A stretch of DNA of 59,423 nucleotides. It comes from a virus. Location of the stretch: the IMG/VR virus record IMGVR_UViG_3300000271_000010, positions 72,958-132,380 of that record. The stretch is one strand, 5' to 3'. The notes under the pieces are model-generated. The model saw only the letters and a list, made by a program, of their open reading frames with translations. It searched no databases and had not been told where the DNA came from. Position 1 is the stretch's first letter. Each line of letters begins with the position of its first letter. Shown here one piece after another: positions 9,228-28,159 of the stretch. Position numbers and translations under genes: made by a program.

Positions 9228-9261
9228 GATCGGCGGGCTCCGGCCCGCCTTTCTTTTGCCA

Positions 9262-9686: not shown

Positions 9687-9928
9687 TGCACAAGACCCCG
9701 CCCGCAATCGACACCAGCGTGACCGTCCAACTCTGGACGCCCGGCGGTTTGATTGTCAGCATCCCGGCTGGGTTCATTACTTCCGATCCCGTGCGGGCTT
9801 CGCTGGATAAGCGAACGCAGGAAGGCGACACGCACGCCGCTATCACCATGGCCCGCCACACCGGGCTTGATGTGACCATCCGCCGGGAAACACAAACCAC
9901 CGTTCGCGCCTCCGATCTGGAGGCGTGA
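9686..9928 (+). CDS. cassette hypothetical protein
   Basis: TGATG coupling; in-frame ATG 9686. Confidence 0.7.
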   Translation: MHKTPPAIDTSVTVQLWTPGGLIVSIPAGFITSDPVRASLDKRTQEGDTHAAITMARHTGLDVTIRRETQTTVRASDLEA

Positions 9929-10054
9929 GCGCCCGGTAATCATCCGTTAACCTTAACAAAACGTCTGAACTTGTTAACAATTTATCTGGAAAAAGTGCTT
10001 GACCTAATACAACGACTCGCCTAGAAACGAATCAGTTGAAACGGAGACAAGACC

Positions 10055-10699: not shown

Positions 10700-10859
10700 A
10701 CTAGGCGGGCTCCGGCCCGCCTCTTTTTACCGGTAACCAGCCGTTAACCTTAACAAATCGGCCTAAGTTGTTAACTATCAAAGTGGAAAAACTACTTGAC
10801 CGAATCAGCGAATCACCCTAGACCGGGATCACCGCAATCAAGCGGTTGGAGACTTGACC

Positions 10860-11276
10860 ATGCCTAAGTGGAACTATCGCGGGGACGCTGATCTTTGTGA
10901 AGGTGGCTTTTTCTGGCGCGAAGACGGGGCCGATGATTACGTCCTCGCTGTGGAAGTGATTCCCTGCTCGGCGGCTGGCGGCCCGGACAATCTTTTCTGG
11001 ATTAACGAGGGCTTGATCTACATCACGCCCGACCGCATCAAAGCTGCCTTGGAAGGCGTCTATGGTCCGTATTATGTGCCGGACCGCGCCGATACCATTG
11101 ACGCTGTTATGTCTCACTACGGTATGGAGACTGACAGCGAAACCAAGCTGCGAATCGGCAAGTATGAACCGAACCCGGACTGCTGGCGGTTCGACTCGGA
11201 CAACTTCGAAGTGGACGTGGTGCTACGCGGCGGCTCCAGTCTGGATAACTGGGTGAAGCGGAATTGTCTGGGATAA
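10860..11276 (+). CDS. cassette hypothetical protein
   Basis: GGAGA RBS; ATG 10860. Confidence 0.8.
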   Translation: MPKWNYRGDADLCEGGFFWREDGADDYVLAVEVIPCSAAGGPDNLFWINEGLIYITPDRIKAALEGVYGPYYVPDRADTIDAVMSHYGMETDSETKLRIGKYEPNPDCWRFDSDNFEVDVVLRGGSSLDNWVKRNCLG

Positions 11277-11411
11277 CGAGAGGGGCTTCGGCCCCTCTTT
11301 CCTCCCCGGTAACTAGCCGTTAACCTTAACAAACGGTTACCATTAGGTGGAAAAAGTGCTTGACCGAATCGGTTGTCTCACCTAGAAACGAATCATCTAA
11401 GGAGACATATC

Positions 11412-11771
11412 GTGAAAAATCCCAAACACAGCGGCTGGACAGAACACCCCGACGGCTCGCACACCGCGAAAATCGGCCGCACGCAAATCACTATTTGCCC
11501 ACCACACCCGTGGGCGTTTTGGCGGGGCGATCACAGGGATGAGCCTTGTCATACTGGACCCGGCGAACACCGACCGGTTACTTTTCATGGTAGCCATAGC
11601 GGCGGCGCTTTCACAGTTGACGGGGCAAAGGCTATGGCGCTCTGGACCGTCCTTAACGACTTGACCGGCAAGACCCCACCGGATTCGATCTTCCCACCGG
11701 AAGAACTCGAAGCGCGTCGCGTCTGGGATGAAACGGTCGCTTACGTCAACCGCACCTATGGGGAGCGCTAA
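11412..11771 (+). CDS. cassette hypothetical protein
   Basis: AAGGAG RBS then GTG 11412. Confidence 0.75.
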   Translation: MKNPKHSGWTEHPDGSHTAKIGRTQITICPPHPWAFWRGDHRDEPCHTGPGEHRPVTFHGSHSGGAFTVDGAKAMALWTVLNDLTGKTPPDSIFPPEELEARRVWDETVAYVNRTYGER

Positions 11772-11773
11772 CC

Positions 11774-11983
11774 ATGTCGATCTATGTCTCGCCTGAAATG
11801 AAAGACATTTACGCAAGCAAGGAAATTGCGGCTCGGCTCCTACCGGACGGACGGGCGGTGGTTGACCGTCTTGCCGCCCGCCATGTCCTGAATATGGAAG
11901 GCTTGAAGCGTATCCCGTGGAAGCCGGACGAATTGCTGGAAGCGGTAAGCGCGCTGGGCTATCACATCGCTTGGCTTGAATAG
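11774..11983 (+). CDS. cassette hypothetical protein
   Basis: second gene with GGAG RBS. Confidence 0.7.
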   Translation: MSIYVSPEMKDIYASKEIAARLLPDGRAVVDRLAARHVLNMEGLKRIPWKPDELLEAVSALGYHIAWLE

Positions 11984-12119
11984 GAGACCCGACGCAAGCC
12001 GGTTCTTTCTTTGTAACCAGCCGTTAACCTTAACAAACGGTTATCACTAGGTGGAAAAAGTGCTTGACCGAATCACTTACACCCCTTAGAAACGAATCAG
12101 TTGAAACGGAGACAGACCA

Positions 12120-12620
12120 ATGCCTGATGCACGCGATTACACCGGATTTCACGAAGTGAGCGCAGCAACCCGCGAACGGGAAGCCGCCCGCAATACTGAT
12201 TTCAAGGCTTGCCCTATCCTTGCTGATTTCATCGCTACCATGCTGCAAGATTTGCAGCACACGGAAGCGGATCAAGCTTGCGAGGAAGAGCGGGAGCAAG
12301 GTGACACCGGCACCATCTACACCCTTGACGAGTCAGTCTATAAGACTTGCAAGCGCCTGTGTGAAGAGTTCATGACACACAATGCAACCCATATCGACGA
12401 AGCCCTTGATCTGGAACCGGGTGAACCCGGCTTGCAGTATGGGCGCGATTACGTCACTTATGAACGCATCGGCTCCACGTTCTACATGCAACTTGTCGGA
12501 CATGGTGTCAGCTTTACGGATGACGGAAACGCACCGTGCCTTGAAGCGATGAACGAATATGCCAGCAATCTGTATGGCGCTCAGTTCTACTTTGACGGGG
12601 AAAACGTCTATTACTGCTAA
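12120..12620 (+). CDS. acidic cassette hypothetical protein
   Basis: RBS and ATG after the promoter; terminator follows. Confidence 0.8.
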   Translation: MPDARDYTGFHEVSAATREREAARNTDFKACPILADFIATMLQDLQHTEADQACEEEREQGDTGTIYTLDESVYKTCKRLCEEFMTHNATHIDEALDLEPGEPGLQYGRDYVTYERIGSTFYMQLVGHGVSFTDDGNAPCLEAMNEYASNLYGAQFYFDGENVYYC

Positions 12621-12769
12621 GGGAAGGCGGGCAACCCGCCTTTTCTTTGCCGGTAACCGATCGTTAAGGTTAACAGATTGGCCCAGCCGTTAACCATCAA
12701 AGTGGAAAAACTACTTGACCGAATCACTTGTCTGTCTTAGAAACGAATCACCAACAACGGAGACAGACC

Positions 12770-13009
12770 ATGCAGACCGCAGTGCAACGCCTTAACGAAG
12801 CCGCTAAGACCTCATTCTTGAAGCCGCAGTGCTTTAAGGGTGGTGAAATTCAGGAAGCCATCATGGAAGCTGGCCTCGATCTCGAAGACGACAAGGTTTA
12901 TGCCCGCCTGTCGGCAAACGGCTATCTGGATTGCACCGATTGGAGCGGCCCTTACGATAGCGTGGAAGAGGCGGCGGAAGGCTTGCTCTCCCTCTACTTC
13001 GAAGATTAA
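12770..13009 (+). CDS. cassette hypothetical protein
   Basis: ATG after GGAGACAGACC. Confidence 0.8.
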   Translation: MQTAVQRLNEAAKTSFLKPQCFKGGEIQEAIMEAGLDLEDDKVYARLSANGYLDCTDWSGPYDSVEEAAEGLLSLYFED

Positions 13010-13159
13010 GGAGAGGGGCTTAGGCCCCTCTTTCTTTACTGGTAAGCAATCGTTAAGGTTAACGCGTCGCGGTAATTCGTTAACCGTCAAAGTGGAAATA
13101 GTGCTTGACCGAATCACTTGGGTTACCTAGAAACGAATCACCAACAACGGAGACAGACC

Positions 13160-13807
13160 ATGCAAACACCCAAGCAGATTGCTGATGAAATCGACAACGG
13201 TGCGGCGGCGGACATTTTCTATGACGCTGACGATTATGGGGATGAAGGCCCTTCGATCACCATCGAAAACTTCCAACTAGCGTGCGCTCAAGGCGCTGCT
13301 ATATTGCGCCAGCTTGACGCGCCGGAAGAATGGTTTGTGGTGATTACCGACGAAGACGGGAATCGGGTTGATTCGGAAACCTTCGGTGGTGACTATTCGA
13401 TCGAACACATTCGCGAAGTCGCTGGCAAACACTTCGGCGATCTACCGGCTGGGCACAATTGCCGCTTCTACCCAGTTGGACCGGAGCGGGTTGACCTCGC
13501 ATTCGGATTCTCCGGTGACTTGCCTGACCCACGTCTGGCACATTCTATCGCTCTCTTGCGGCTGCGCATAGGCTTGTCGGATCAGATTGACAAAGCAGTT
13601 GCAGACAAGGATTTGGCCCTTGAAATGGCGCTTCATGCACTGCATCAAGAAAACGAAGTTCGAATCGATAACGATCAGACCCAATATCTCTTGGATCGTG
13701 GTTGGGCGAACGAGGATGGTTGGGAGGGTTGCCCGGATGATTACATGGGCGAAACACTCTGGAGCGGTCACGCGGCGGAAGATGAACTGCGAAAGTGGTT
13801 CGGCTAA
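13160..13807 (+). CDS. acidic cassette hypothetical protein
   Basis: ATG after GGAGACAGACC. Confidence 0.8.
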   Translation: MQTPKQIADEIDNGAAADIFYDADDYGDEGPSITIENFQLACAQGAAILRQLDAPEEWFVVITDEDGNRVDSETFGGDYSIEHIREVAGKHFGDLPAGHNCRFYPVGPERVDLAFGFSGDLPDPRLAHSIALLRLRIGLSDQIDKAVADKDLALEMALHALHQENEVRIDNDQTQYLLDRGWANEDGWEGCPDDYMGETLWSGHAAEDELRKWFG

Positions 13808-13967
13808 GTGGGAGGGGCTTAGGCCCCTCTCTTTTTGCCCGGTAACCAGTCGTTAACCTTAACAGCCCGGTAACCAAGTGGAAAAACTTCTGGACGAATT
13901 GGCTTGCGAATCGCTGGCATCTCCCCTAACAAGAGTTCAGCGCAATTCCGCGCTCGGAGACGACCCA

Positions 13968-14414
13968 ATGTCATCACCCTTCCTACCTTCCGTGCAAGAC
14001 CAACTGCAAGCGCGTCGCGACGAATCGGACGACGGATTCGCCTGTGTCCACATCGACACTTGCCTTTCAAGCTTCCTGAATGACCACCACAATCGCGATG
14101 GCGAACTGCTGCTGGGCGCGATCATCTTCGGTGATACGTCCATCGGTGAAGTCAAGAACGAACTGCTGAGCGAGTTCGATTCGGTGGCTTACGATCTGGC
14201 TGGCGAACGGGCTGGCTACGACCACGCACGGGCTCGGGCTGCGATCCTGCGTTCGTTTGCGGACGTGCATCCCATGGAACTGGACCGAAAGGCTTTCGAT
14301 CCGTCGGTGGACCTCCGCGACGAAGGCGACGAAGATTCCTGCGAGGAATACTGCCAAGCGTGGTTCCTCATTACGTGGAACGTCCCGGAAGAGGAGGATG
14401 GCTCATCGGATTGA
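13968..14414 (+). CDS. acidic cassette hypothetical protein
   Basis: ATG after GGAGA; variant promoter. Confidence 0.75.
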   Translation: MSSPFLPSVQDQLQARRDESDDGFACVHIDTCLSSFLNDHHNRDGELLLGAIIFGDTSIGEVKNELLSEFDSVAYDLAGERAGYDHARARAAILRSFADVHPMELDRKAFDPSVDLRDEGDEDSCEEYCQAWFLITWNVPEEEDGSSD

Positions 14415-14515
14415 TCGACGCACTGAGCCGCGCTATTCTCGGGGTTCTATTCATCATCTTCGCAATGGGGCTGGCTTCGTGCCAGCCTCTCTTTTTCGTG
14501 GCAACATCTCGTTAA
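14411..14515 (+). CDS. 34-aa hydrophobic lipobox micropeptide (MIDALSRAILGVLFIIFAMGLASCQPLFFVATSR, TTG start)
   Basis: TTGA overlap with the upstream stop; similar to the 6797 and 16565 peptides. Confidence 0.5.
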   Translation: MIDALSRAILGVLFIIFAMGLASCQPLFFVATSR

Positions 14516-14605
14516 GGTTAACAAAGCGTGGAGACTTGTGGAAAAAGTGCTTGACCGAATCACTTGCACCACCTAAAAACGAATCAGTTCAAACGGAGAC
14601 AGACC

Positions 14606-14860
14606 ATGAAGCCGCACCTATCTTTTGCAGTAGCCCGCCCGGATGAAGTCGCCGAGTGCTGGGATGGCATCTACGAAGTTCCCGGCCTTTATCAGGCGCT
14701 CTGGGGCTGTGTGGGCGATTACAAGGCCCCGTCGCCGGAAGTATCGGAAGAGCCCTGCCACGGCATGGACTCGGTCGCTGATTTCTGGGATCGGTTCTCG
14801 GACGATCACAAGGCGGCTCTTAATGCAGCCGCTGCGGCGCACTACGCGTCTTGGAGTTAA
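14606..14860 (+). CDS. cassette hypothetical protein
   Basis: ATG after GGAGACAGACC. Confidence 0.8.
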   Translation: MKPHLSFAVARPDEVAECWDGIYEVPGLYQALWGCVGDYKAPSPEVSEEPCHGMDSVADFWDRFSDDHKAALNAAAAAHYASWS

Positions 14861-15378
14861 TGATTATGGAAAAATTCATTCACCACGAACGGGTGTCTGT
14901 CGAAGGCGGAAGCGAGGAAGATGCCTACGACGTGATTGAAGACGAAGATGGCTTCAACGTGGTCCGCGATGGGCACTACATGACGCCTTTCGAAACACTG
15001 GCGGAAGCTGTGGCTGTTGCCTACCAGCTTGCGGAACAGGAAGAAAATCACATCAAAGAACAACGCAGAAAGGCGAATATGAGCCGGACACAATTCATCG
15101 ACGGAAAGGCCAAGCGCTACGTCCGCGACCTGCGGGAAGGCGACCTTGTGGACCTCGAAAACGATATGTATGCTGATGCAGATGCATGGGCTGCCTTCAA
15201 GAATGGAGAGGACGGGGACGCCGTTCGCTCGCATCCAGAGTTCGAGTTCGAGTTCCAGACCGTTTCTTGGATCGAACGTGAGACCGAGGATTGCATCAGT
15301 GTGTCCTTCGAGTCAGGGTTCTCTTGCGGGTTCCCACCCGACCACTTGGTGGATGTGGATGGAGAGCAAGCGGAATAA
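14860..15378 (+). CDS. acidic cassette hypothetical protein
   Basis: TAATG coupling; strongly D/E-rich. Confidence 0.75.
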   Translation: MIMEKFIHHERVSVEGGSEEDAYDVIEDEDGFNVVRDGHYMTPFETLAEAVAVAYQLAEQEENHIKEQRRKANMSRTQFIDGKAKRYVRDLREGDLVDLENDMYADADAWAAFKNGEDGDAVRSHPEFEFEFQTVSWIERETEDCISVSFESGFSCGFPPDHLVDVDGEQAE

Positions 15379-15532
15379 GCGAGGGGCTTCGGCCCCTTTC
15401 TTTTTGTCCGTAACTATTCGTTAAGGTTAACAGCCGGGTAATCACTGGAAAAATAAATGGAGAAAGTGCTTGCGCAAATCGAATCACTGGTCTATTACCG
15501 AATCACCGGCACGGAGCCGGAGGAGAAAGACC

Positions 15533-15979
15533 ATGCAAGACGCCTCAATTTTCAAGCGCCGCGAAACGACCTTCAACGGCGGTGATTCGACCAACGGGAC
15601 ATTCATTCCCAAGCAGACCGTCACGATCGGGAGGTGTGTTGACGAAGACGAAGACATCTGGACCGTCACCGATGTGAACGGCAAGACCCACCGGGTTGAT
15701 GGCTGCGAACTGCACCCACACCCGGAAGCCGCGCTGACCAACATCGAGTTCATGAATGTTCTCATGACGTGGTGCAAGACCCCGTTGATGCACGCTTTCA
15801 TCATGCAGGCGCTGGATCAATACGCGCAGGCTGTCGTCAAGGCGGACGTGGCAACGCTCGAAACCCCGTTCATCGCCGGGGCTGCGTGGCAGGAAACCGC
15901 CCGCGAATATCTGGGCTTCGCCGCTGCCCGCGACTACGTGGAAAAGGCACGGCATAAGGAATTGACTCCGGCCGATTGA
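15533..15979 (+). CDS. cassette hypothetical protein
   Basis: GGAGGAG RBS, ATG 15533. Confidence 0.8.
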   Translation: MQDASIFKRRETTFNGGDSTNGTFIPKQTVTIGRCVDEDEDIWTVTDVNGKTHRVDGCELHPHPEAALTNIEFMNVLMTWCKTPLMHAFIMQALDQYAQAVVKADVATLETPFIAGAAWQETAREYLGFAAARDYVEKARHKELTPAD

Positions 15980-16154
15980 GCCTTCGGGCTCTCGGTGAGG
16001 GGCAGGGTTTGGTCGCCCTGCCCCTCAACTTTTCTGGTAGAGACCCATTAACCTTAACGAATAGGGCCGGGTTGTTAACTTTGGAAGTGGATAAAGTGCT
16101 TGACCGAATCACTTGCTTCGGGCAGAAACGAATCACCACAACCGGAGATGACCT

Positions 16155-16565
16155 ATGGACGCTTATGTTTTTCAAGCCGCGCTGATCTGCGAAGATTGCT
16201 GCAACGGTTTCAAGCAAGACACCCCTTGTCTTGTTAATGAAAGCGACGAGTCAAGTTATGACTCAAGTGAGTGGCCTAAAGGCCCTTACAGCGAAGGCGG
16301 TGGCGAGTCGGATACCCCGCAGCACTGCGACCGGTGTGGGATGTTCCTTGACAATCCCTTGACGGGGGACGGGGAGACCTATGTCCGCGACGCCTTTCGG
16401 GAGTTCGTGGAGACCGGACGCGGGAGCCTTGACGTTCTCGCCGAGTGGAAAGCGGCCTATGATTGGTGCTGGGATGATTTCTACTCCATCACTTTCCCTA
16501 TGATGGAAGAAGAAGGACTCACCGATATCTGTCAGCGACGCTTCGACTCCTTAGAAGCGGCCTAA
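16155..16565 (+). CDS. acidic cassette protein with two CxxC pairs (possible Zn binding)
   Basis: CEDC and CDRC motifs; RBS and ATG after the promoter. Confidence 0.75.
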   Translation: MDAYVFQAALICEDCCNGFKQDTPCLVNESDESSYDSSEWPKGPYSEGGGESDTPQHCDRCGMFLDNPLTGDGETYVRDAFREFVETGRGSLDVLAEWKAAYDWCWDDFYSITFPMMEEEGLTDICQRRFDSLEAA

Positions 16566-16732
16566 TGGGCTGTCTCGACGCCGTTGCCAAGCTGCTGCTT
16601 GGAGTGCTGTTTCTGATATTCGCCGCCGGGGTTGCTTCTTGCGCCCCGGTGTTTTCTTTAAGGGAACGACTCGTTAACCTTAACAAAAAGGTCTGCTTTG
16701 TTAATCACCTTCTAAGTGGAAATAGTGCTTGA
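16565..16732 (+). CDS. hydrophobic lipobox micropeptide (MGCLDAVAKLLLGVLFLIFAAGVASCAPVF...)
   Basis: TAATG coupling; paralogue of the 6797 peptide; frame runs 55 aa into the next promoter. Confidence 0.55.
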   Translation: MGCLDAVAKLLLGVLFLIFAAGVASCAPVFSLRERLVNLNKKVCFVNHLLSGNSA

Positions 16733-16785
16733 CCGAATCACTTGCCCCGACTAGAAACGAATCACCAACAACGGAGACAAACCAA

Positions 16786-17193
16786 ATGAGCGAACACGCA
16801 ATCAGCAACGCACGGGCATGGGTCGCGACAATCGCAGGTGCTGCGCTGGCACTGGAATCCCTGAACGACGGAGCCGAGTCGGCTGAGTTCGACGGGGAGA
16901 CTTTCACCGACCCGGAGGACGTGCAACAGCGGATTCACGAAATGCCCCTGTCGGTGCAAGTGCGCGGCGGCTGGTATCAGCCCGGAGCCGACCGCTCGGA
17001 AGTGGAGGCGGAAGAGTTCGAAATTCTGCTTTCGACCGGCGGCCCCGCCTTGCGCGTTTATGGTGATATCGGCGGCGAACCATTCTTGCAGTGGCAGGAC
17101 TGGGGAACGCCGTGGACCACCTACCACGACACCAGCGAATTTGAGGACGAAGCGATTCGCGCCTTTGTCGGCATGTTCTATCTCGGCGAATAA
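16786..17193 (+). CDS. acidic cassette hypothetical protein
   Basis: ATG after GGAGA; EILLSTGGPA and WQDW motifs. Confidence 0.8.
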   Translation: MSEHAISNARAWVATIAGAALALESLNDGAESAEFDGETFTDPEDVQQRIHEMPLSVQVRGGWYQPGADRSEVEAEEFEILLSTGGPALRVYGDIGGEPFLQWQDWGTPWTTYHDTSEFEDEAIRAFVGMFYLGE

Positions 17194-17358
17194 GGAAAGG
17201 CGGGGCAACCCGCCTTTTTCTTTGTCTGTAACCATTCGTTAAGGTTAACGGAATCGGTCGATCGTGTTAACCATGTGCAAAAGTTGAAAAACTGGTTGAC
17301 CTAACCGGTGGAATATGCGAATCACAAGTCACGGCGAATCAACGCCGGGAGACAAACC

Positions 17359-17490
17359 ATGCGAATCATTTTCAAGGAAAAGACTGACGGAAGCCTCAAG
17401 CGCGTTGATCGTGCCGACAAGCTGGAACGCCGCAAGGCACGCCGTCAAAAGGCTGAGCGCCAGCGCTTCGCCTTCGCTAACAACGTCTAA
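17359..17490 (+). CDS. 43-aa basic peptide
   Basis: GGGAGA RBS; K/R-rich. Confidence 0.65.
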   Translation: MRIIFKEKTDGSLKRVDRADKLERRKARRQKAERQRFAFANNV

Positions 17491-17500
17491 GGGGCTCGAC

Positions 17501-18139
17501 ATGCCAACCGAAAAGACCATCACGCTCTACACCTACGATGAATTGAGCGACAAGGCCAAGGAGCGCGCCCGCCAGTGGTGGAACGAATGCCGCGACTCGT
17601 CCGATTATCATGCGGTGACGGAAGACTTCGCCACAATCATCAAGCTGATGGGCTTCGACTTGACGACTCACAGCGTGCGGCTGATGAATGGCAGCACGCG
17701 GGAAGAGCCTAACATCTGGTGGAGCCTCGGCTATTGCCAGAGCGACTACGCTGGATTCGAAGCCCGCTACAGCTACGTCAAGGGCGGCGCGGCTGCTGTC
17801 AAGTCCTATGCTCCCAAGGACGAGACCTTGCACGCAATCGCCGATTCGCTGCAAGAGATGCAGAAGCGCAACTTCTGGCAAATCAGCGCTAAGATTCGGT
17901 TTGACGACCGGCGCGGCTATGACATCGCCGAAGTCCTCAAGGACGGCTGTTATATGTATGGCAGCGACGCTGAGTCCGACGCCGAAGCGGTGATCCTCGA
18001 AGCGTGCAAGGACCTGTCGCGCTGGCTCTATTCCAAGCTGCGCGAGGAAGACCAATATCTTTCCAGCGAGGAATCCGTGGCCGACGCAATGGAGGCGAAC
18101 GAATACACCTTCCGGGAAGACGGGACGCGGGAAGACTGA
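17501..18139 (+). CDS. conserved plasmid/ICE-type protein (family often labelled 'antitoxin of toxin-antitoxin stability system')
   Basis: YTYDELSDKAKERAR, YAPKDETLHAIADSLQEMQKRNFWQ, DLSRWLYSKLREE and ANEYTF match my recollection of that family. Confidence 0.65.
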   Translation: MPTEKTITLYTYDELSDKAKERARQWWNECRDSSDYHAVTEDFATIIKLMGFDLTTHSVRLMNGSTREEPNIWWSLGYCQSDYAGFEARYSYVKGGAAAVKSYAPKDETLHAIADSLQEMQKRNFWQISAKIRFDDRRGYDIAEVLKDGCYMYGSDAESDAEAVILEACKDLSRWLYSKLREEDQYLSSEESVADAMEANEYTFREDGTRED

Positions 18140-18304
18140 GAGGGACCCGGCGGCGCTGAGAAGTGCCGCCGGGTTTCTCTTTTCTGGTAACGGACTGTTA
18201 AGGTTAACGGGGAGTTACCAGCAAGTGGAAAAAGTGCTTGACCGAATCACTGGAAAATGCGAATCAGGGGTTACCGGAAGAGACCGGAAAACAGGAGAAA
18301 GACC

Positions 18305-18607
18305 ATGACCGCACCGTTTACCCAAGGCACCCCCGCCCTAGTCAACAAGGCCAAGGCCAGCGCCATCGCCTTCTACGGCATGGCAGGCCGAGGCGCTACC
18401 GCCCCCGGCGCTGTAGTGATCCGCAAGCTGGGCGATGACAGCAACGCAAATTTCGTTGTCCACTTTTTCAATTCGCAGGACGGCGGATACTATTCGGGAG
18501 GCTACACCGAAACGCTGGTGCAGGCTTACGAGGAGTTCGCTGAACGTCTTCGCCGCTACGACCGTGACGGGGAACTGAACAACGCTTTCGTGGAACCTGA
18601 GGCGTAA
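18305..18607 (+). CDS. cassette hypothetical protein
   Basis: AGGAGA RBS, ATG 18305. Confidence 0.8.
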   Translation: MTAPFTQGTPALVNKAKASAIAFYGMAGRGATAPGAVVIRKLGDDSNANFVVHFFNSQDGGYYSGGYTETLVQAYEEFAERLRRYDRDGELNNAFVEPEA

Positions 18608-18612
18608 GGCAC

Positions 18613-18697
18613 GGGACCCGGACCCTTGAGAACAGGGGCCGGGTTTCCAAACACCGGCGGGACCCGGCCCACTGAGAACAAGGGCCGGTTTTCCAAA
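18613..18697 (+). repeat. two ~39-bp direct repeats GGGACCC-N9-AGAACA-RGGGCCGG-KTTTCCAAA
   Basis: copies at 18613 and 18659; relatives at 5302 and 5353. Confidence 0.8.
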
Positions 18698-18824
18698 TTG
18701 GTAACGACCCGTTAACCTTAACACTCCGGCTGAATGTGTTAACCATCAAAGTGGAAAAAGTGCTTGACCGAATCACCGAAAACGGACAAACGAATCAGGC
18801 GCACTCAAGCGCTGGAGACAGGCC

Positions 18825-19112
18825 ATGCCTAAGCTTTATAATGCTGACATAACCATCACCGCGACCGCTTACGTGGTGGCTGAGAACGAAGACGAAGCGC
18901 GTGCGAAGATCAGCGCCCTTCACAACACCGGGATCGAATTTTCCGACCGCCGCCAACAAGTGTCAGACGACTTGTTCGTGACCGGAGAAACCTACGGCAT
19001 CGACATGCCGGAACTGTCGCTGAGCCCGGCCATGACCATCAACTACAGCGCGACGCGCCCCTATGTCTGTCTGGTCCAAGAACTGGATGGCGACGAAGGG
19101 GAGGAAAGCTGA
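18825..19112 (+). CDS. cassette hypothetical protein
   Basis: RBS and ATG after the promoter. Confidence 0.8.
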   Translation: MPKLYNADITITATAYVVAENEDEARAKISALHNTGIEFSDRRQQVSDDLFVTGETYGIDMPELSLSPAMTINYSATRPYVCLVQELDGDEGEES

Positions 19113-19384
19113 TGCACGAAGCCAATCAGGACCGGATCGACTGGGCAAAGAACGCCCTCGATACCTTCACCATCGAAACCTACGGCGGGCGGCCTTACTC
19201 AACGCTTGAAGCGCAGTGCGCCGACTGCGAGGAAGGTATGGGGGACGATTACACCGCCGTGCAAGACCTCATTGGCGACTTGCTCCATGTGGCCCATGAA
19301 CGGGGCTGGAACACCGCCGAGCTTATCCGGCGGGCGGAAGCGAACTTTGTCTATGAAGTCGCGCCGGATTATCAAGGCGATTAA
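19112..19384 (+). CDS. cassette hypothetical protein
   Basis: TGATG coupling; DLIGDLLH motif. Confidence 0.75.
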   Translation: MHEANQDRIDWAKNALDTFTIETYGGRPYSTLEAQCADCEEGMGDDYTAVQDLIGDLLHVAHERGWNTAELIRRAEANFVYEVAPDYQGD

Positions 19385-19704
19385 GGAGAGGGGCTTCGGC
19401 CCCTCTTTGCTTTTCGGTCGTTTTGGATCGCCGCTGCTTTGGACAGGTCCGACTTTGGATCGGGCTTGTTTTGGGTTTGGATCATTTCGACTTTTATGAA
19501 CCCCTCTATTTTGAGCCCACCCCGACCGGGCGCGGATTGGTTGATGATTGGTTAACCAATCACCGCCAGTGGCTGGTTAACGAAAACAGGCAATCTGTTA
19601 AGGTTAACAAATCGGCCGATCGCATTAACCATCAAAGTGGAAATAGTTCTTGACCGAATCACTTGCCTCACCTAGAAACGAATCACCAACAACGGAGACG
19701 CACC

Positions 19705-19911
19705 ATGCTGATTTTTCACTACCCCTCGAAAAAGGCCCTCAAGGAATGCATCGGCCAGCCCCTGCGCTACGAAGAGACTTCGCTCTTCGGCCCTGAGTAT
19801 CGCCCGGACGGACGCCTGACCGGCGCGAATCGCCCGCACATCACGAAGATCGGCCGGGAGTTCTTCGCCAACGTCACCATGAAGGACGGCAAGATCGCCA
19901 AGGTCGAATAA
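19705..19911 (+). CDS. cassette hypothetical protein
   Basis: ATG after GGAGA. Confidence 0.8.
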   Translation: MLIFHYPSKKALKECIGQPLRYEETSLFGPEYRPDGRLTGANRPHITKIGREFFANVTMKDGKIAKVE

Positions 19912-20078
19912 GAGGAGGGGCTTCGGCCCCTTTTCTTTTGACCTTAACCCCGCGTTAAGGTTAACAGATTGGGCCAATTCGTTAACCATTAAAATGCAAA
20001 TAAGTGGAAAAAGTGCTTGCGCGAATCGGTTGAGACTGGCAGTAAGGGGATGCGGCACGGAGCCGCTGGAGACGACCT

Positions 20079-20378
20079 ATGGCAACGCTGACCCTCAAGA
20101 CCGCCCGCCCCGCCGCCACCATCCGCGCCGAGGCCATCGCCTACGACCGCATCCCCGCGAGCGCTGCCGAGCGCGCCGCCGCCCTCGCCCTCCTGATCGA
20201 CGGGGACGCGTGGACCCTCGCCGAATACGTCGCGTGGATCAACCGCGACGCCACCACCTTCGCCCTCATGGGCGCGGCTGAGTGGGCCGAGCGCGGCATC
20301 ACCACCGCTTCCGCCCTTGGCGACCTTCTGGACGCCGAATGCGAGCGCGAGCGCCGCAAGGAGGCCATGTATGGCTGA
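20079..20378 (+). CDS. Ala-rich cassette hypothetical protein
   Basis: RBS and ATG after the promoter. Confidence 0.75.
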   Translation: MATLTLKTARPAATIRAEAIAYDRIPASAAERAAALALLIDGDAWTLAEYVAWINRDATTFALMGAAEWAERGITTASALGDLLDAECERERRKEAMYG

Positions 20379-20550
20379 TCTATGCCCCTGCGGGCAAAGA
20401 CACCGCCGCAACAAGGCCGCTTGCGCCATCGCCGCCAAGGCTGAGGCATGGGGCGCAAGTGTGTCGTGGTCGAATACCCCGGACGATATGTGCCATCAAA
20501 TCACCTTCACCCCTGACGAATTAATGGGCTGGCTCGCGGACAACCGCTGA
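20371..20550 (+). CDS. cassette hypothetical protein
   Basis: AAGGAGG RBS, ATG 20371. Confidence 0.65.
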   Translation: MADLCPCGQRHRRNKAACAIAAKAEAWGASVSWSNTPDDMCHQITFTPDELMGWLADNR

Positions 20551-20665
20551 GCCAGTCAACGTTAGTGTTTCGTTAAGGTTAACCAATCCTGAAACTTGGT
20601 GGAAAAAGTGCTTGCCCGAATCAGTGGAGCGCCCTAGACCGGGCTGACCAACACGGAGATTTTCT

Positions 20666-20917
20666 ATGACCTCGATTCGCGACCTCGCCCACGCCCGTCA
20701 CCTCGTCGCCACCGGCGAGGCCACCGCCTATATGGCGCGCTCCTCGCAGCAGGCCGAGGACCTGCGAATCGCCTTTGTCGAGCGCTGGGAGGCGCTGGGC
20801 GACCTCACAACCTGCGCTGCCATCGACGAAGGCAAATGGCTGGACAGCCAGATCAAGGAACTTGATTGCGAATGGGGCGACCCTGTTTCACCTGAGTGCG
20901 AATCGCACCTCTATTGA
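20666..20917 (+). CDS. cassette hypothetical protein
   Basis: RBS and ATG after the promoter. Confidence 0.75.
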   Translation: MTSIRDLAHARHLVATGEATAYMARSSQQAEDLRIAFVERWEALGDLTTCAAIDEGKWLDSQIKELDCEWGDPVSPECESHLY

Positions 20918-21074
20918 GGGAGCGGGCTTCGGCCCGCCTCTTGGCTGGTAACGGTTTGTTAAGGTTAACGGCTAGGTGGAATTTGTTAACCATCGAAGTG
21001 GAAAAAGTGCTTGACCGAATCAGTTGCGCCACCTAGAAACGAATCACCGCAATCAAGCGGTTGGAGACAAGACT

Positions 21075-21161
21075 ATGAGCCGTTACCAGAAACGTCGCCT
21101 TGCCGCTAAGCGGGCGCGGATCGCCATCTTTTCCGCGATGATCGCACGGGGCCGCCGCTAA
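21075..21161 (+). CDS. 28-aa Arg-rich peptide (MSRYQKRRLAAKRARIAIFSAMIARGRR)
   Basis: first ORF after the GGAGA RBS; TAATG-coupled to the next gene. Confidence 0.65.
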   Translation: MSRYQKRRLAAKRARIAIFSAMIARGRR

Positions 21162-21430
21162 TGGCTGGCTTCTGGAACCGCGTGGAACTTCTCGAAATGG
21201 TGGAACTCTACGCCGAGGACAACAACGAAATCGCCAGCGAGGACGAACTTTCCAAGCGGTTTGACGAAGAAGTCTTGCCGAGCGTGCTGGAGAAATACAG
21301 CGAGTCCGATACGGTCGCCATTAACGAGGCGTTCAACGACTGGACGGACATGCTCTGTAAGGACGGTGAAATCCATCCCGAACAATACGACTCGTATTGC
21401 TACGTTGGCCGACTGGCGGACGACGATTAA
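21161..21430 (+). CDS. highly acidic cassette protein
   Basis: coupled second gene; EAFNDWTDMLCKDGEI motif. Confidence 0.8.
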   Translation: MAGFWNRVELLEMVELYAEDNNEIASEDELSKRFDEEVLPSVLEKYSESDTVAINEAFNDWTDMLCKDGEIHPEQYDSYCYVGRLADDD

Positions 21431-21548
21431 GGCGAGGGGCTTAGGCCCCTCTCCAATCTTTTACGGAATTGGTGGAAAAAGTGCTTGACCGAATCGGTTG
21501 GCTCGCCTAGAAACGAATCACCGGAAGCAACCGGCTGGAGATAAGGCC

Positions 21549-21695
21549 ATGAACACCTACACCGTCCTCATCAACAACACCCCGTCGGGCATCGTCTCGG
21601 CAGTTTCGCACCGGCAGGCTCTCAAGCGCGCCAAGGCAAAGCATCGCGGCCCGGTTGACGTGATCGGGTTCGTCTCCACCAAGGCGAAGGTTTAA
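21549..21695 (+). CDS. 48-aa basic protein, paralogue of 26346..26615
   Basis: GGAGA RBS; shared G-x-VSAV...A-x-KRA pattern. Confidence 0.7.
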   Translation: MNTYTVLINNTPSGIVSAVSHRQALKRAKAKHRGPVDVIGFVSTKAKV

Positions 21696-21870
21696 GGGAG
21701 GGGCTTCGGCCCCTCTTTCTTTTTGCCTGTTACGATCTGTTAACCTTAACGAATATGGTTAACAAAGTAACGTTTGGCGTTAACCATCAAAGTGGAAAAA
21801 GTGTTTGACCGAATCAGCGAATCACCCTAGTGAGAGTGCATCACTTCCACCCTCCCTAGGAGAACACGCC

Positions 21871-22110
21871 ATGTGCCGCACCGAACGCCTCCCCACCCCG
21901 GCTGCCAGCATCGAAGAGGCCCGCGACCTCTTCAACGACCTGATGGCTGACGAGCAGTATCAGGACAATTTCCGCGAGGCGTTCGAGGACGACGCGGACG
22001 CGTTCCGCGCCTACGGCTTCAAGGCCGATTCCGGGTGCTGTGGATCGGCTGACGTGACCTATCTGATCGATGGGCGCGTCTACTGGATCGGCTGCAACTA
22101 CGGCCACTAA
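21871..22110 (+). CDS. cassette hypothetical protein
   Basis: AGGAGA RBS, ATG 21871. Confidence 0.75.
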   Translation: MCRTERLPTPAASIEEARDLFNDLMADEQYQDNFREAFEDDADAFRAYGFKADSGCCGSADVTYLIDGRVYWIGCNYGH

Positions 22111-22257
22111 AACGAGGGGCTTCGGCCCCTCTATTTTTGCCCTTAACCCGGTGTTAGGGTTAACAGGCTGGGCGAAATCGTTAACCATCAAAGTGAAAAA
22201 AGTGCTTGACCGAATCAGTTGTATGTGAGAAAACGAATCATCAACTGGAGACAGCCA

Positions 22258-22392
22258 ATGCAAAACGTCCGCAAGAACCCCATCGCCGCCTCGCTCGCCA
22301 GCGCCCACCTCGCCCCTCGCAAGGTTCGCGCTCGCAAGGGCAAGGGAGCGTTCCAGCGCTCGCCCAAGCACAAGGGGAGGGCTTGGGCATGA
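22258..22392 (+). CDS. arfA: ArfA-like alternative ribosome-rescue factor, 44 aa (MQNVRKNPIAASLASAHLAPRKVRARKGKGAFQRSPKHKGRAWA)
   Basis: N-x-I-x-x-x-L ... KGKG-x-F-x-R-x-x-KH pattern aligns with the ArfA core (NAIEALL...KKGKGSYMRKGKH); proper RBS; missed by the ORF track. Confidence 0.65.
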   Translation: MQNVRKNPIAASLASAHLAPRKVRARKGKGAFQRSPKHKGRAWA

Positions 22393-22574
22393 CTGAGCAA
22401 TACAAACAGGGTTGGAAAGCCCACCTAGCAGGCGACGGGCTGAAAGACTGCCCTTACCCCAAAGGATCGACCGAGGCCCGGCGCTGGTGCTGCGGCTGGT
22501 ATGAATGCAGGGACGATCCCACAAGAGCCGCTGAGGCTGGGACCGAGGAATATCTGAGGCAACGGGGATATTGA
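22389..22574 (+). CDS. Rmf/CrpP-fold protein (ribosome modulation factor-like)
   Basis: YKQGWKAHLAG...CPY...RRWCCGW matches the Rmf pattern G-x-x-A-x-x-x-G...CPY...W-x-x-GW; ATGA-coupled to the ArfA-like gene. Confidence 0.65.
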   Translation: MTEQYKQGWKAHLAGDGLKDCPYPKGSTEARRWCCGWYECRDDPTRAAEAGTEEYLRQRGY

Positions 22575-22724
22575 GGAGGGAGGGGCTAAGGCCCCTCTCT
22601 TTTTATCTGGTAACCCGGCGTTAAGGTTAACGGATCGCCCTAATTGATTAACCATTAAAGTGGAAATAGTGCTTGACCGAATCGGTTGTCCATGCGAAAA
22701 CGAATCATCAACCGGAGACAGATC

Positions 22725-22898
22725 ATGAAGAAAAGCCACGACGCCCGTTACAGCATCCGCCTCGAATGGTGTGGACGCGCCACGCAGCAATGGGTCGCCC
22801 GCTTCTGCGGTGATTGGCTGGGCTGCGATGCAACCCGCTCGGGCGCTGAGGAAATCGCCCGCCTTTATGAGCGCGACCGCTGGGCGGTGGCGGCATGA
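22725..22898 (+). CDS. cassette hypothetical protein
   Basis: ATG after GGAGA. Confidence 0.7.
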   Translation: MKKSHDARYSIRLEWCGRATQQWVARFCGDWLGCDATRSGAEEIARLYERDRWAVAA

Positions 22899-23323
22899 GC
22901 GGCGGCTATCGCGTCGAGTCGCATCAGCGTTACGCCTCGCTGGTGGAGGAATTGGAGGTAATACGAGAGAGCATCCAGCAGGCTTTAGAAGCTGTCGCGG
23001 AGGCTGAAATCTTTGCTTTGTCGAAGCGGTTCCCGACCCGGCGAATTGCGTTTGATAGTGGTATGGGTGTATCCCAAATCAACATCAACCGGCGGCATCC
23101 TGACCATAACGACCCTTATGACCGGTGGCACTATTGCGGAGAAGCTGGCACATCAGACCGTGATTGGCCTAGTTGGCTTGAAATTCCCGCCCCTGAACTA
23201 TGGGCCGCGATTCGCGTCTATGAAGAAGAAGTTTCCGACAAAGGGGCTGATCCGGGACTAGGCTGCATCATCTACGAAAACGGAGTCAGGATCAAAGGCT
23301 TGGGAGATGCTTGGCGCGAATAA
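22895..23323 (+). CDS. cassette hypothetical protein
   Basis: ATGA coupling; terminator follows. Confidence 0.75.
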   Translation: MSGGYRVESHQRYASLVEELEVIRESIQQALEAVAEAEIFALSKRFPTRRIAFDSGMGVSQININRRHPDHNDPYDRWHYCGEAGTSDRDWPSWLEIPAPELWAAIRVYEEEVSDKGADPGLGCIIYENGVRIKGLGDAWRE

Positions 23324-23473
23324 CGGGAGGGGCTTCGGCCCCTCTTTCTTTGTTTGTAACCATTCGTTAACCTTAACAAACTACCCGAAATCATTAACCA
23401 TTAAAGTGGAAATAGTGCTTGCACGAATCAGCGAATCGGCCCATACCTGAATCACCAACAACGGAGACAGACC

Positions 23474-23764
23474 ATGCAGACCAACGATCCCAGCGCCGTC
23501 ACCCACCACAACGGTGGCACCACCTTCACCGGTGATGCTATCGACCTCTATCGCGCCGTGACGCTCAAGAGCGCCATCAAGCTGCACCGCGATTGCGGAA
23601 TGATCCCGACTCGCGGTATGACCATCACGAAGATGTTCGCACTCGCCCAGCAGATCACCGGCAAGAAGTATAAGCGCGGCGCACACGATGCGGCCATCGC
23701 TGACCTGACCGTGTGGATCGAAGCCGCCAAGGCATCCATGCCGATCATCGACGAACGCACCTGA
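23474..23764 (+). CDS. cassette hypothetical protein
   Basis: ATG after GGAGACAGACC. Confidence 0.8.
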   Translation: MQTNDPSAVTHHNGGTTFTGDAIDLYRAVTLKSAIKLHRDCGMIPTRGMTITKMFALAQQITGKKYKRGAHDAAIADLTVWIEAAKASMPIIDERT

Positions 23765-23994
23765 AAGGAAAGTGGTTAACGGGGAAGCCCTCCCCGTTAA
23801 CCATATTTCCGGACGGTAACCACTCGTTAAGGTTAACAAAGCGTCCTAAGTTGTTAACTATCAAAGTGGAAAGTAAGTGGAAAAAGTGCTTGCACGAATC
23901 AGCGAATCGGCCTAGACCCGAATCACCAGCCGGCACCTACTGTCTGGCAGAGCAGCAGCAAGGCTCGGCTGGTAACTGACACAGGAGACAGACC

Positions 23995-24156
23995 ATGTTC
24001 GAAGTCAAGACCACCCTGCGGACCTACAAGGTCGATGCCCTTCACATCAACGCCGCTTTCATGGCTGCAAACCTGTTTGCACTGGAAGACGAAGAAATCC
24101 TTTCCGTGGCCTATGCTGGGCCCGTCACCTACATCATCGTGGAGATTGAAGCATGA
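23995..24156 (+). CDS. 53-aa cassette protein (MFEVKTTLRTYKVDALHINAAF...)
   Basis: ATG after AGGAGACAGACC; ATGA-coupled to the next gene; missed by the ORF track. Confidence 0.7.
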   Translation: MFEVKTTLRTYKVDALHINAAFMAANLFALEDEEILSVAYAGPVTYIIVEIEA

Positions 24157-24371
24157 TCAGCAAGAAAGACGCCATCGCAAAGGCAATCGCGGCTGGAGGC
24201 TCGCAGGAAGAGATCGACCGCCAAGCATCCCACTACGTCCGACAGGTGGGCAGTGTGCCTTTCAACAACATGATCCGGGCTCTCAACATGCATTGGTGGA
24301 ATAATGACGTTCACCAGTGGACGCGGCTGGCAGCAGCCCTCACCGCAAGGGGATTGGCGCGAAAGCGCTAA
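24153..24371 (+). CDS. cassette hypothetical protein
   Basis: coupled second gene. Confidence 0.7.
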   Translation: MISKKDAIAKAIAAGGSQEEIDRQASHYVRQVGSVPFNNMIRALNMHWWNNDVHQWTRLAAALTARGLARKR

Positions 24372-24490
24372 TTCCTTAACGGGAGGGGACCATTTGTTAA
24401 GGTTAACGGCCGGTAACAATAAATGGAAAAAGTGCTTGACCGAATCAGTTAACCATCCTAGAAACGAATCAACAGCAACGGAGACACACC

Positions 24491-24703
24491 ATGAAGATCA
24501 AGATCAAGACCACCGCCCGCTACACTGCCAAGCGCAAGGCCGCCATCATCGCCGACGTGGATAACGGCACCACCACCCTCGAAGAGGTTTGCAGCCTGCA
24601 CAACATCACAAGCGAAGAGTTCGAAGGCTGGCGCAAGTCGCTCGACCGCTCGGGACAGCAAGGGCTTCGGATCACTCGCCTGCAACACTACCGGGCAGCA
24701 TAA
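24491..24703 (+). CDS. sciP: SciP-like CtrA inhibitor (DUF1153 family)
   Basis: RYTAKRKAAIIADVDNGTTTLEEVCSLHNITSEEFEGWRKSLDRSGQQGLRITRLQHYR aligns end to end with the SciP/DUF1153 core (RW..RKA.VV..V..G.....EA...Y.L..EEF..W......G...LR.T..Q.YR). Confidence 0.85.
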   Translation: MKIKIKTTARYTAKRKAAIIADVDNGTTTLEEVCSLHNITSEEFEGWRKSLDRSGQQGLRITRLQHYRAA

Positions 24704-24853
24704 GGGAAGGGGCTTCGGCTCCTTTTCCTTTGTCTTTAACCCAGTGTTAAGGTTAACAGATTAGTGGAATTAGTTAACCAATTAGCTGGAAAAAGTGCTT
24801 GACCGAATCGGCGAATCACCCTAGACCCGAATCACCAACAACGGAGACAGCCA

Positions 24854-25111
24854 ATGTTCGACCTCAAGAACCCCGCCAGTGCCAACACCCTGCCCGCCAT
24901 GCTCGCCGGGATCGGCGCGCTTGCCATCATGATCTTGCTGATTATGCCGACCGAAAAGACGGGCTATGCGCTGGAGGCTTACAACAGCCACACTGGCGAT
25001 GTTTACGTCATGGACTACGGACTGTCCTACAGCGACTGTGTGGACGCTGTGGACGATCGCCGCAGCCGCTGGGGCACAGCGATTCGCTGGTCCTGCGCTT
25101 ACAACGGGTGA
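24854..25111 (+). CDS. small membrane-anchored protein
   Basis: hydrophobic LAGIGALAIMILLIM segment. Confidence 0.75.
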   Translation: MFDLKNPASANTLPAMLAGIGALAIMILLIMPTEKTGYALEAYNSHTGDVYVMDYGLSYSDCVDAVDDRRSRWGTAIRWSCAYNG

Positions 25112-25114
25112 CCC

Positions 25115-25279
25115 ATGGAAACCATCGCAGAAATCCGCCACAAACGGGATCGGGCAATCCTGCAACGCCGAATCGGTGAGGAGCGCCGCCGCCACGTCAA
25201 CCAATGCGTTGCCGACATCATCGCACAAGGGAAGATGGAAGAACGCCGCCAGACCATCCGCCGGGAGGACGACCAATGA
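25115..25279 (+). CDS. 54-aa charged helical protein (METIAEIRHKRDRAILQRR...)
   Basis: fills the gap between neighbours; ATGA-coupled to the next gene. Confidence 0.6.
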   Translation: METIAEIRHKRDRAILQRRIGEERRRHVNQCVADIIAQGKMEERRQTIRREDDQ

Positions 25280-25488
25280 TTACCGTCATGAAAGACCGCC
25301 GATTCACCATCGTGGAGCAAGCCGGATACGAAGGGGAGCGCGATATCACAAGCTATCCCACCTTGCGGGAGGCGTTCGCCCATCTGAGCGAACGCTATGA
25401 ACCGGGGGAGACCGAATCGCTTCGCGTTGACATTCGCCAAGACTGGACGGACGAAAAAGGCGAAGAATTTTCCGAATACGTTTATTGA
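25276..25488 (+). CDS. cassette hypothetical protein
   Basis: GGAGG RBS, ATG 25276. Confidence 0.7.
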   Translation: MITVMKDRRFTIVEQAGYEGERDITSYPTLREAFAHLSERYEPGETESLRVDIRQDWTDEKGEEFSEYVY

Positions 25489-25554
25489 TGGAAAAAGTGC
25501 TTGACCGAATCAGATGATCGTGCGAAAACGAATCATCGAAACGGAGACAAGCAA

Positions 25555-25737
25555 ATGACCATCATCTTCACCGCCCTGATCGCCTTTTTCGCCACCACCG
25601 CTTTCGCTATGCTGGCAAGCTGGTTGACCTACAAAGCACCGGCCGCGCCGCGTAAGCCGGAAGTGGTTGAATACACCGGCCCGAACTACACCTTCTACGG
25701 GCGGGAAGTGGCGAAGACCGGACGCCGAGTAATCTGA
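25555..25737 (+). CDS. small membrane-anchored protein
   Basis: GGAGA RBS; N-terminal hydrophobic helix IIFTALIAFFATTAFAMLASWL. Confidence 0.7.
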   Translation: MTIIFTALIAFFATTAFAMLASWLTYKAPAAPRKPEVVEYTGPNYTFYGREVAKTGRRVI

Positions 25738-25910
25738 GAAAAGGCGGGAGAAATCCCGCCTTTTTCTTTATCAGTAAACGGGCGTTAAGGTTAATAAATC
25801 GGGAGAAATTCTTAACCTTAAAAATAACGGTTTCTGGAAAAAGTGCTTGAACGAATCGGCGTTTTCTGGGAGAAGCGAATCTCCTTAAACAAAGAAAGTG
25901 GGTTATCAAT

Positions 25911-26060
25911 ATGGGCGGGTTTCTAGGGAGCCTTATTTCAGGGATCGCAGTGCGTCTAGGCGGCATCGGCTTGTCCGTCTATGTGGGCCTGACCATGGGC
26001 GAGCATATCACCAGCCTATATGGCGGGGTCGTCACCACCATCACCACTGCACTGCGATAG
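25911..26060 (+). CDS. 49-aa hydrophobic peptide (MGGFLGSLISGIAVRLGGIGLSVYVGLTMGEHITSLYGGVVTTITTALR)
   Basis: only ORF after the promoter at 25847; weak RBS. Confidence 0.5.
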   Translation: MGGFLGSLISGIAVRLGGIGLSVYVGLTMGEHITSLYGGVVTTITTALR

Positions 26061-27343: not shown

Positions 27344-28159
27344 TTGGACCCAAGCCTCGTGGCCCACAAGAAGAAGCAGATTTTCTTTCCCACTGATCCT
27401 GTCCACGCAGCCGAGAAGGTTGTAGCCAGTCGGCAGCCACCCAAGCCGGCTCCTGTTTTGAAAGCCCAAACACCCGGTCAGAAAGGTTACATCCGCAAGC
27501 TTACCCAGAACCACCACGACATCCTCTTCGCCGTCGGCCCGGCCGGCACCGGTAAGACCTACGCCGCCGTTCTCGATGCCATCATCAAGTTCCGCCGTGG
27601 TGACTGCACCAAGATCATCATCACGCGCCCCATGGTCGGCGCAGGTGGTGAAGAACTGGGCACCCTGCCCGGCGGTGTGATGGAGAAGGTCGCACCGTGG
27701 TGCATCCCGCTCCTCGATATCTTCAAGGAGTTCTACACCAAGTATGAGGTCGAGCAGATGCTGGACCGTGAGGAGATCGAGATCGCTCCCCTTGCCATCA
27801 TGCGTGGACGCACCTTGAAGAACGCGATCGTGATCGCTGACGAAGCTCAGAACTGCACGGTCGAACAGATGAAGATGTTGATGACCCGTATCGGCGACGG
27901 ATCGCGGATGGTCATCACAGGCGACATCGAACAACACGACCGCCCGCACGGCGCTTCGGGTCTGGCCGACATCATTCGCCGGATCGACGAGAAGGAAGCG
28001 CGGGATCGTTTCGAAGCGTCGCTGCCTGTGTCGATGGCTGGGAGTGATGAAGAAGAGCCCCGTCTGCGTCACAGCCGGATCGGCGTTGTTAAGCTCGGCC
28101 GTAAGGACGTTGTTCGTCACGCTGTGATCGACGACGTTCTCAGCCTCTACGAGGAGTAA
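27344..28159 (+). CDS. phoH: PhoH-family ATPase
   Basis: GPAGTGKTY Walker A, MRGRTLKNAIVIADEAQN, TRIG and GDIEQHD motifs. Confidence 0.95.
   Translation: MDPSLVAHKKKQIFFPTDPVHAAEKVVASRQPPKPAPVLKAQTPGQKGYIRKLTQNHHDILFAVGPAGTGKTYAAVLDAIIKFRRGDCTKIIITRPMVGAGGEELGTLPGGVMEKVAPWCIPLLDIFKEFYTKYEVEQMLDREEIEIAPLAIMRGRTLKNAIVIADEAQNCTVEQMKMLMTRIGDGSRMVITGDIEQHDRPHGASGLADIIRRIDEKEARDRFEASLPVSMAGSDEEEPRLRHSRIGVVKLGRKDVVRHAVIDDVLSLYEE

Follow-up and report, generated by a model that had tools for sequence, protein, structure and literature searches.

The window analysed here, a stretch of 59,423 nucleotides, forms the final 59 kb of a linear 132,380-bp virus record that is estimated to be 78% complete, and it holds two small genes, ORF1 (44 aa, P0001) and ORF2 (61 aa, P0002), which overlap by ATGA and are flanked by one putative promoter repeat and a terminator-like hairpin (Table 1). 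The preliminary description of this locus had named two such overlapping frames, an ArfA-type KGKG-x-F-x-R-x-x-KH motif and a normal stop without a hydrophobic tail in the first, an Rmf-type G..A...G...CPY...W..GW pattern in the second and one cassette promoter for both, and each of these points holds in the translated window, where the motif of ORF1 reads KGKG-A-F-Q-R-S-P-KH and a single repeat, presumed to act as promoter, lies upstream of the pair with the hairpin downstream. A sigma-70 consensus scan found no promoter site at the cassette, and the hairpin (22580-22597) is absent from one of the terminator scans and present in the other fold and repeat evidence. A contig of run X1, possibly the source of the same DNA, is identical to the window over 21900-23000.

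The pair fills one cassette in a series of 33, each with its promoter repeat, in what is a Lacusarx-like phage. Allowing up to five mismatches, the record has 35 copies of a 22-base promoter-like repeat, of which 33 lie in the window at 6474-25836; the repeat mostly stands 63-78 bases upstream of a small gene, while CtrA-box-like sites of the TTAA-N7-TTAA type number 43 in the window against 8.9 expected. The 33 promoter-terminator cassettes, spread over 6300-26000, carry such CtrA-box-like sites together with paired GAATC sites, which we take to be linked to CcrM/GcrA, and relatives shuffle genes among cassettes. Within this CtrA-box-rich region, 24491-24703 encodes a DUF1153 protein (E 3e-20), presumably of the same family as the CtrA inhibitor SciP; this was the only match above cut-off when 38 other cassette-region proteins were scanned against Pfam and PHROG, and no anti-defence protein was named among them. 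Two more very short basic ORFs, at 21075-21161 (28 aa) and 17359-17490 (43 aa), occupy first-gene positions in their cassettes and have no Pfam or PHROG match, and a PhoH-family gene lies at 27344-28159. Among 44 cassette genes of the window that we listed by hand, there are 11 closely coupled pairs, and since four of these 11 use ATGA, the overlap of ORF1 and ORF2 is ordinary in these cassettes. Likewise, the inverted repeat at the end of ORF1 does not clearly exceed chance level in the window (p 0.046 with a late-gene codon pool, 0.09-0.10 with a cassette codon pool), and an end-of-gene hairpin at p≤0.05 is found in one of the 44 genes.

The tape-measure protein is closest to those of the Erythrobacter phages XM05 (65%) and vB_EliS-L02, the Sphingobium phage Lacusarx and the Citromicrobium phage RXM, and the SerRS of the record is closest to Sphingomonadales genomes; from these nearest relatives we infer that the host probably belongs to the Sphingomonadales. 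In addition to SerRS, the record carries an RtcB-family RNA ligase gene and 10 tRNAs, all distant from the ORF1/ORF2 cassette, and no tmRNA was found in this 78%-complete record. CtrA-site-rich regions are known in Lacusarx-like phages, and those of Lacusarx, Cp1R7A-A1 and phiCbK-like phages, as far as the accessible text of PMC9437464 describes them, resemble the window in that CtrA-box-like sites lie between genes, in a setting of many small genes without known function. They are terminal repeats, whereas the window comes from a linear, incomplete record and is likened to them by its cassette sites.

Table 1. Positions of the features discussed, in window coordinates unless another locus is named
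Feature	Position	Strand	Remark
Terminator-like hairpin ending the previous cassette	22114..22131	+	repeat family D7/D9
CtrA-box-like site TTAA-N7-TTAG in the cassette's upstream repeat	22143..22157	+	consensus from PMC9437464
Putative cassette promoter repeat with two GAATC sites	22195..22239	+	-35-like TTGACC at 22206-22211; promoter activity presumed
Shine-Dalgarno-like GGAGA of ORF1	22247..22251	+	as in other cassette first genes
ORF1, 44-aa ArfA-family protein	22258..22392	+	short, stop-terminated form
8-bp inverted repeat at the end of ORF1	22362..22388	+	ORF2 Shine-Dalgarno-like GGGGAGG (22374-22380) in the loop
ORF2, 61-aa predicted Rmf/CrpP-fold protein	22389..22574	+	without the basic N-terminus of RMF
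Terminator-like hairpin and T run ending the two-gene cassette	22580..22604	+	repeat family D7
RtcB-family RNA ligase	L078:184-1425 (G000:C1:7683-8924)		below NCBIfam cut-offs
10 tRNA genes	G000:C1:187-2164		
Overprinted ArfA loci	L005:1495-1617 (Roseobacter phage CRP-212), L029, L031/L032, L058		

ORF1 and the ArfA family

ORF1 scores above the Pfam cut-off for ArfA (PF03889; 29.1 bits against 25.5, E 6.6e-7), and when nine of its close homologues were used for a profile search of the PDB, all six matches were ArfA (best E 7e-4); no NCBIfam family matched it. The protein is very basic (pI 12.0, 12 K+R, no D or E) and has six residues between its KH and the stop. Aligned with E. coli ArfA (YhdL; PDB 5H5U, 5MDV, 5MGP, 5U4I), it shares A18, R28, KGKG (K34-G35-K36-G37), R41 and KH (K44-H45) and reaches E. 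coli position 51, past the 40-residue truncation that kills activity. Unlike the E. coli protein, it is missing residues 1-7, changes F25 to L, Q27 to P, E30 to V and Y39 to F (with P-R-K-V standing at the RF2-facing positions Q27-E30), ends at its own stop codon without a hydrophobic tail, and is carried by a phage of a likely alphaproteobacterial host. According to the available text of PMC8012679, A18 is required for the activation of RF2, F25 and Q27-E30 recruit RF2, KH binds the mRNA channel, ArfA cut to 40 residues is inactive, and ArfA/RF2 pairs are species-adapted.

Purifying selection acts on ORF1: pooled over seven close genes, pS is 0.43 and pN 0.076, and dN/dS is ≤0.24 in 20 of 21 pairs. 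The short form is the usual one among phage homologues, 43 of the 48 distinct viral homologues ending ≤17 residues from KGKG, and ORF1, with its stop six codons after KH, has no hydrophobic tail and no clear sign of the E. coli-type non-stop layout, a regulatory trait that is dispensable for activity. Other members do have such a layout, in which the arfA ORF contains a hairpin, in many cases next to a T run, and goes on into a longer tail beyond it; by inspection of folds we find it in phages (L003:1600-1683, which is RXM g10, L055 and L030) and in the bacterial, alphaproteobacterial loci L159, L168, L173 and L175. A rescue role for the family is supported by the fact that some phage and alphaproteobacterial relatives keep this internal hairpin.

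The pattern of what is kept and what is lost in ORF1 does raise a second idea, namely that it is an ArfA-derived plug which does not activate RF2 and competes with tmRNA-SmpB or ArfB, leaving phage products untagged or damping host translation, with ORF2 as a passenger. Indeed, the channel-binding tail is the best conserved part while the RF2-facing strand and the N-terminus diverge, ArfA A18T provides a precedent for binding without activation (in the accessible part of PMC8012679), and tmRNA rescue impairs virus propagation in recoded E. coli (likewise for PMC6207430). We nevertheless consider this reading unlikely, given that A11 of ORF1, the equivalent of A18, is invariant in all nine close homologues, that the N-P-I-A-x-x-L helix region, for which a mere plug would have no need, is conserved as well, and that several relatives retain the non-stop layout, with its feedback, that back-up rescue factors typically have.

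A different hairpin is seen in four of the nine close relatives (L006, L009, L010 and XM05, L002), where a strong structure within the final 13 codons of arfA has the KH codons in its loop and ends 0-3 bases ahead of the stop codon (p 0.002-0.03 against synonymous shuffles in these four; absent in another four). It might serve in coupling or, as a barrier to trimming, give rise to non-stop mRNA, and in XM05 it is present although no gene follows. Whether the window's own repeat might be a hidden non-stop signal of this kind is kept as a lead only, the repeat being borderline in the window and the hairpin absent from four of the nine relatives.

ORF2 and the Rmf/CrpP fold

ORF2 is predicted to share the Rmf/CrpP fold, with every curated cut-off unreached: it scores 22.1 bits against a cut-off of 27.9 for Pfam RMF (PF04957, E 1.6e-4), 20 against 40 for NCBIfam PRK14563, and 21.2 against 28 and 19.5 against 40 for NF041886 and NF041887 Rmf_like_phage. 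Of the profile comparisons that the preliminary description had proposed for both proteins, the one for ORF1 is above the Pfam ArfA cut-off and the one for ORF2 below all RMF cut-offs. Forty-eight relatives of ORF2 were found at E≤0.001, with up to 53% identity, and 44 of them match PF04957 at E≤0.01; many are tandem copies of the fold within larger proteins, and P0013, P0033, P0049 and others, for example, have two to four tandem repeats in long acidic or basic proteins. The predicted model of ORF2 is confident over residues 1-40 (pLDDT about 90) and adds an extra C-terminal helix at low confidence. Foldseek places RMF chains at ranks 1, 2 and 4 (E ≥0.16 throughout; probability 0.99, TM 0.57 and rmsd 2.2 Å for the match at E 0.16), with no match at E≤0.001, and Atlas agrees on the fold at 0.88.

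That ORF2 might be a chance or decaying frame, leaving ORF1 as the only real gene, is an idea to which we give hardly any credence. A word-based search found no close homologue, the IMG/VR search giving a match of nine residues only, and GC3 is lower in ORF2 than in ORF1 (0.62 against 0.84). Set against this are the 48 relatives and the intact fold motif, the confident model, a Shine-Dalgarno-like site of its own and the fact that the frame occupies the space up to the terminator. The differing codon use, with a C3 that is fifth lowest among the 44 cassette genes, is also weakly consistent with a recent arrival of ORF2.

What kind of Rmf-fold protein ORF2 might be is best judged against E. coli RMF (PF04957, PRK14563; PDB 2JRM, 6H4N), with which it has in common the two-helix hairpin and seven structural residues (G16, G23, C29, P30, W40, G43 and W44). 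Mapped on RMF, ORF2 starts at position 9, so that R3 and K5 are absent, and it changes R11 to E and R45 to Y; its pI is 6.5 against 11.3 for RMF, and its net charge is zero. R45 is present in just two of 28 aligned proteins. In the accessible text of PMC8126665, RMF minus 5 or 10 N-terminal residues loses both ribosome binding and 100S formation, R3A, K5A and R11A abolish dimers and R45A leaves faint ones, these four mutants still bound the ribosome, and substitution of G16, C29, W40 or W44 abolished ribosome binding in E. coli. Because the basic residues needed for 100S formation are missing, a hibernation role is unsupported, and on this comparison of residues ORF2 should not be filed as an RMF hibernation factor; of the Rmf-like label in the preliminary description, then, the fold stands and the hibernation factor does not. 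Since the four residues essential for binding are kept and the basic-residue mutants still bound, ORF2 may yet bind ribosomes without dimerising them.

The best description of ORF2 is the Rmf/CrpP-fold family (NF041886, NF041887 Rmf_like_phage, PHROG 10492), a set of scattered small phage proteins which, like ORF2, have the aromatic/glycine pattern and no R45. ORF2 falls below both NCBIfam cut-offs and belongs to a sub-group with a C-terminal D-P..E extension. RMF-family matches were found in seven of 301 genomes of the likely host order, and the six that we inspected by eye are all without the basic N-terminus. The preliminary description had itself cautioned that this fold occurs in proteins with no ribosomal role, and for ORF2 that now looks the likelier case, a reminder that an 'Rmf-like' label on a phage gene is no proof of hibernation.

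Neighbours of arfA and the question of a module

The central proposal of the preliminary description was that the ArfA-like and Rmf-like genes form one ribosome-directed module, and this was not upheld. We gathered 57 arfA-like records (5 from GenBank, 50 from IMG/VR and 2 from metagenomes), which collapse to 48 distinct viral loci with flanks of mostly 1.4-2.5 kb (the shortest 588 bases downstream), and a search with an Rmf-fold profile found no Rmf-fold gene near arfA in any of the 48; pairing was scored mainly from the arfA side, with the loci of ORF2's closest relatives outside the set. As a positive control, the profile recovered six of six known phage Rmf-fold genes, and none of these six loci has an arfA within 2 kb of the Rmf-fold gene. 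Searches of whole records gave no convincing Rmf-fold gene in five arfA-bearing relatives (L02, XM05, RXM, and the records G001 and G002, which are 100% and 57% complete), and none in Lacusarx, Cp1R7A-A1 and two fragments, Lacusarx and Cp1R7A-A1 being also without arfA; the corresponding control recovered the gene in five of five phages. PF04957 did match weakly in G002 (E 0.002) and in XM05 (E 0.008), but on inspection these matches lack either the W..GW half or the CPY half of the pattern and were rejected. In two of the five control phages arfA is present too, unlinked: in Cr30 the two genes are 67 kb apart, and in Marchewka 4.7 kb and five genes apart. The module hypothesis is not supported, because neither the neighbourhoods nor the whole-record searches show a recurring pair. 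No report of an arfA-rmf operon was found in the open-licence literature. ORF1 and ORF2 are likely chance neighbours.

What stands behind arfA is in fact quite variable. Among nine distinct close relatives, an overlapping gene follows in seven, of five different kinds by inspection, and none in XM05 and RXM; two of these kinds are homologues of genes in the window's next cassette, at 22725 (84% identity) and 22895 (55%). The junction in L010 shares 14 bases with the window's junction at 22898, which suggests to us that genes may be shuffled by short homology. For the gene behind arfA in L007, an Ocr-like identity was guessed by eye and dropped, with no Pfam, PHROG or PDB support.

Two versions of a joint function deserve to be weighed here. 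One is a young, functional ribosome operon in which ORF1 rescues non-stop ribosomes while ORF2, attached to the 30S head but not causing dimers, modulates or protects ribosomes in infection. Ribosome factors with either fold are known, the two genes lie in one cassette, ORF2 retains the seven residues of RMF listed above, the genome also offers SerRS, the RtcB-family gene and 10 tRNAs, and Cr30 and Marchewka have both genes. We think it quite unlikely all the same: the pairing recurs in none of the 48 loci, the start of ORF2 at RMF position 9 falls within the N-terminal region whose deletion costs ribosome binding, its net charge is zero, and the retained residues are those read as structural in the accessible text of PMC8126665. 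The bolder version, a rescue-and-modulate operon, is in our view a long shot: here a constitutive mini-ArfA would provide RF2-dependent rescue for an ArfA-poor host order, ORF2, devoid of the basic tail, would bind 30S without dimerising, and together they would counter mRNA-cleaving defences. If it were true, the large family of phage Rmf-fold proteins would have to be regarded as ribosome modulators of a new class.

The reading that we prefer, and to which we assign a probability of roughly 0.7, is that ORF1 acts alone in freeing host ribosomes on non-stop mRNA, and that ORF2 is a recently swapped-in Rmf/CrpP-fold passenger, predicted not to hibernate ribosomes. ORF1 would be made early, from a cassette promoter used by the host polymerase; its KGKG..R..KH tail would enter the empty mRNA channel, and host RF2 would be recruited. 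Because ORF1 has its own stop codon and no hydrophobic tail, it is predicted to be free of tmRNA feedback, and ribosome recycling could thus be kept up while mRNA is being broken in infection. ORF2 would have been swapped recently into an interchangeable slot behind arfA, and its co-expression with ORF1 by translational coupling would be owed only to cassette architecture. For ORF2 itself we rather favour a role as a small helical hairpin with a binding partner outside the ribosome, either a host or a phage protein. Some findings do count against the preferred reading, including the missing first seven residues, the L at F25 and the proline at Q27 of the RF2-binding strand in ORF1, and the presence of both genes, though unlinked, in Cr30 and Marchewka.

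ArfA in phages and in their hosts

Pfam ArfA was found in one of 301 genomes of the likely host order, and a wider ArfA profile matched 13 of 301 genomes of the class, some of them weakly; in the available text of PMC11633108, ArfA is given for 0 of 2,376 Alphaproteobacteria. Since the likely host order is almost without ArfA, it is probably the phage that brings in a rescue factor, one ending at a stop codon of its own. Short ArfA genes are widespread in phages of Alphaproteobacteria, whose hosts mostly seem to do without, and if ORF1 does work with host RF2, such phages would bring along a ribosome rescue of their own that is untagged and free of feedback, and RNA-cleaving defences could be blunted by it.

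Phage ArfA is already known from annotation. Going by the accessible parts of the two papers, it is annotated in Citromicrobium phage RXM as g10 (PMC8953757) and in pelagiphage HTVC027P as gp30, which is highly expressed early and late (PMC12753301), and further examples are XM05_102 and an uncalled ORF in vB_EliS-L02; for functional tests of phage ArfA or phage Rmf, the main texts of the open-licence literature yielded annotation-level mentions only. The ArfA proteins of RXM, XM05 and L02, whose phages are close kin by tape-measure protein, pass the Pfam cut-off as ORF1 does, and their genes sit among small early-type genes, in none of the three with an Rmf-fold neighbour. RXM g10 differs from ORF1 in form: it has 60 aa, its tail is longer and its gene contains a hairpin. 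At least four distinct phage loci contain an ArfA-family ORF within a long gene, overprinted in a second frame where that gene encodes its acidic C-terminal portion; the two that were scored reach 33.4 and 31.6 bits, above the Pfam cut-off, and the annotation of CRP-212 names only the long gene and not the ArfA ORF within it. These overprinted ORFs are a case of conserved dual coding.
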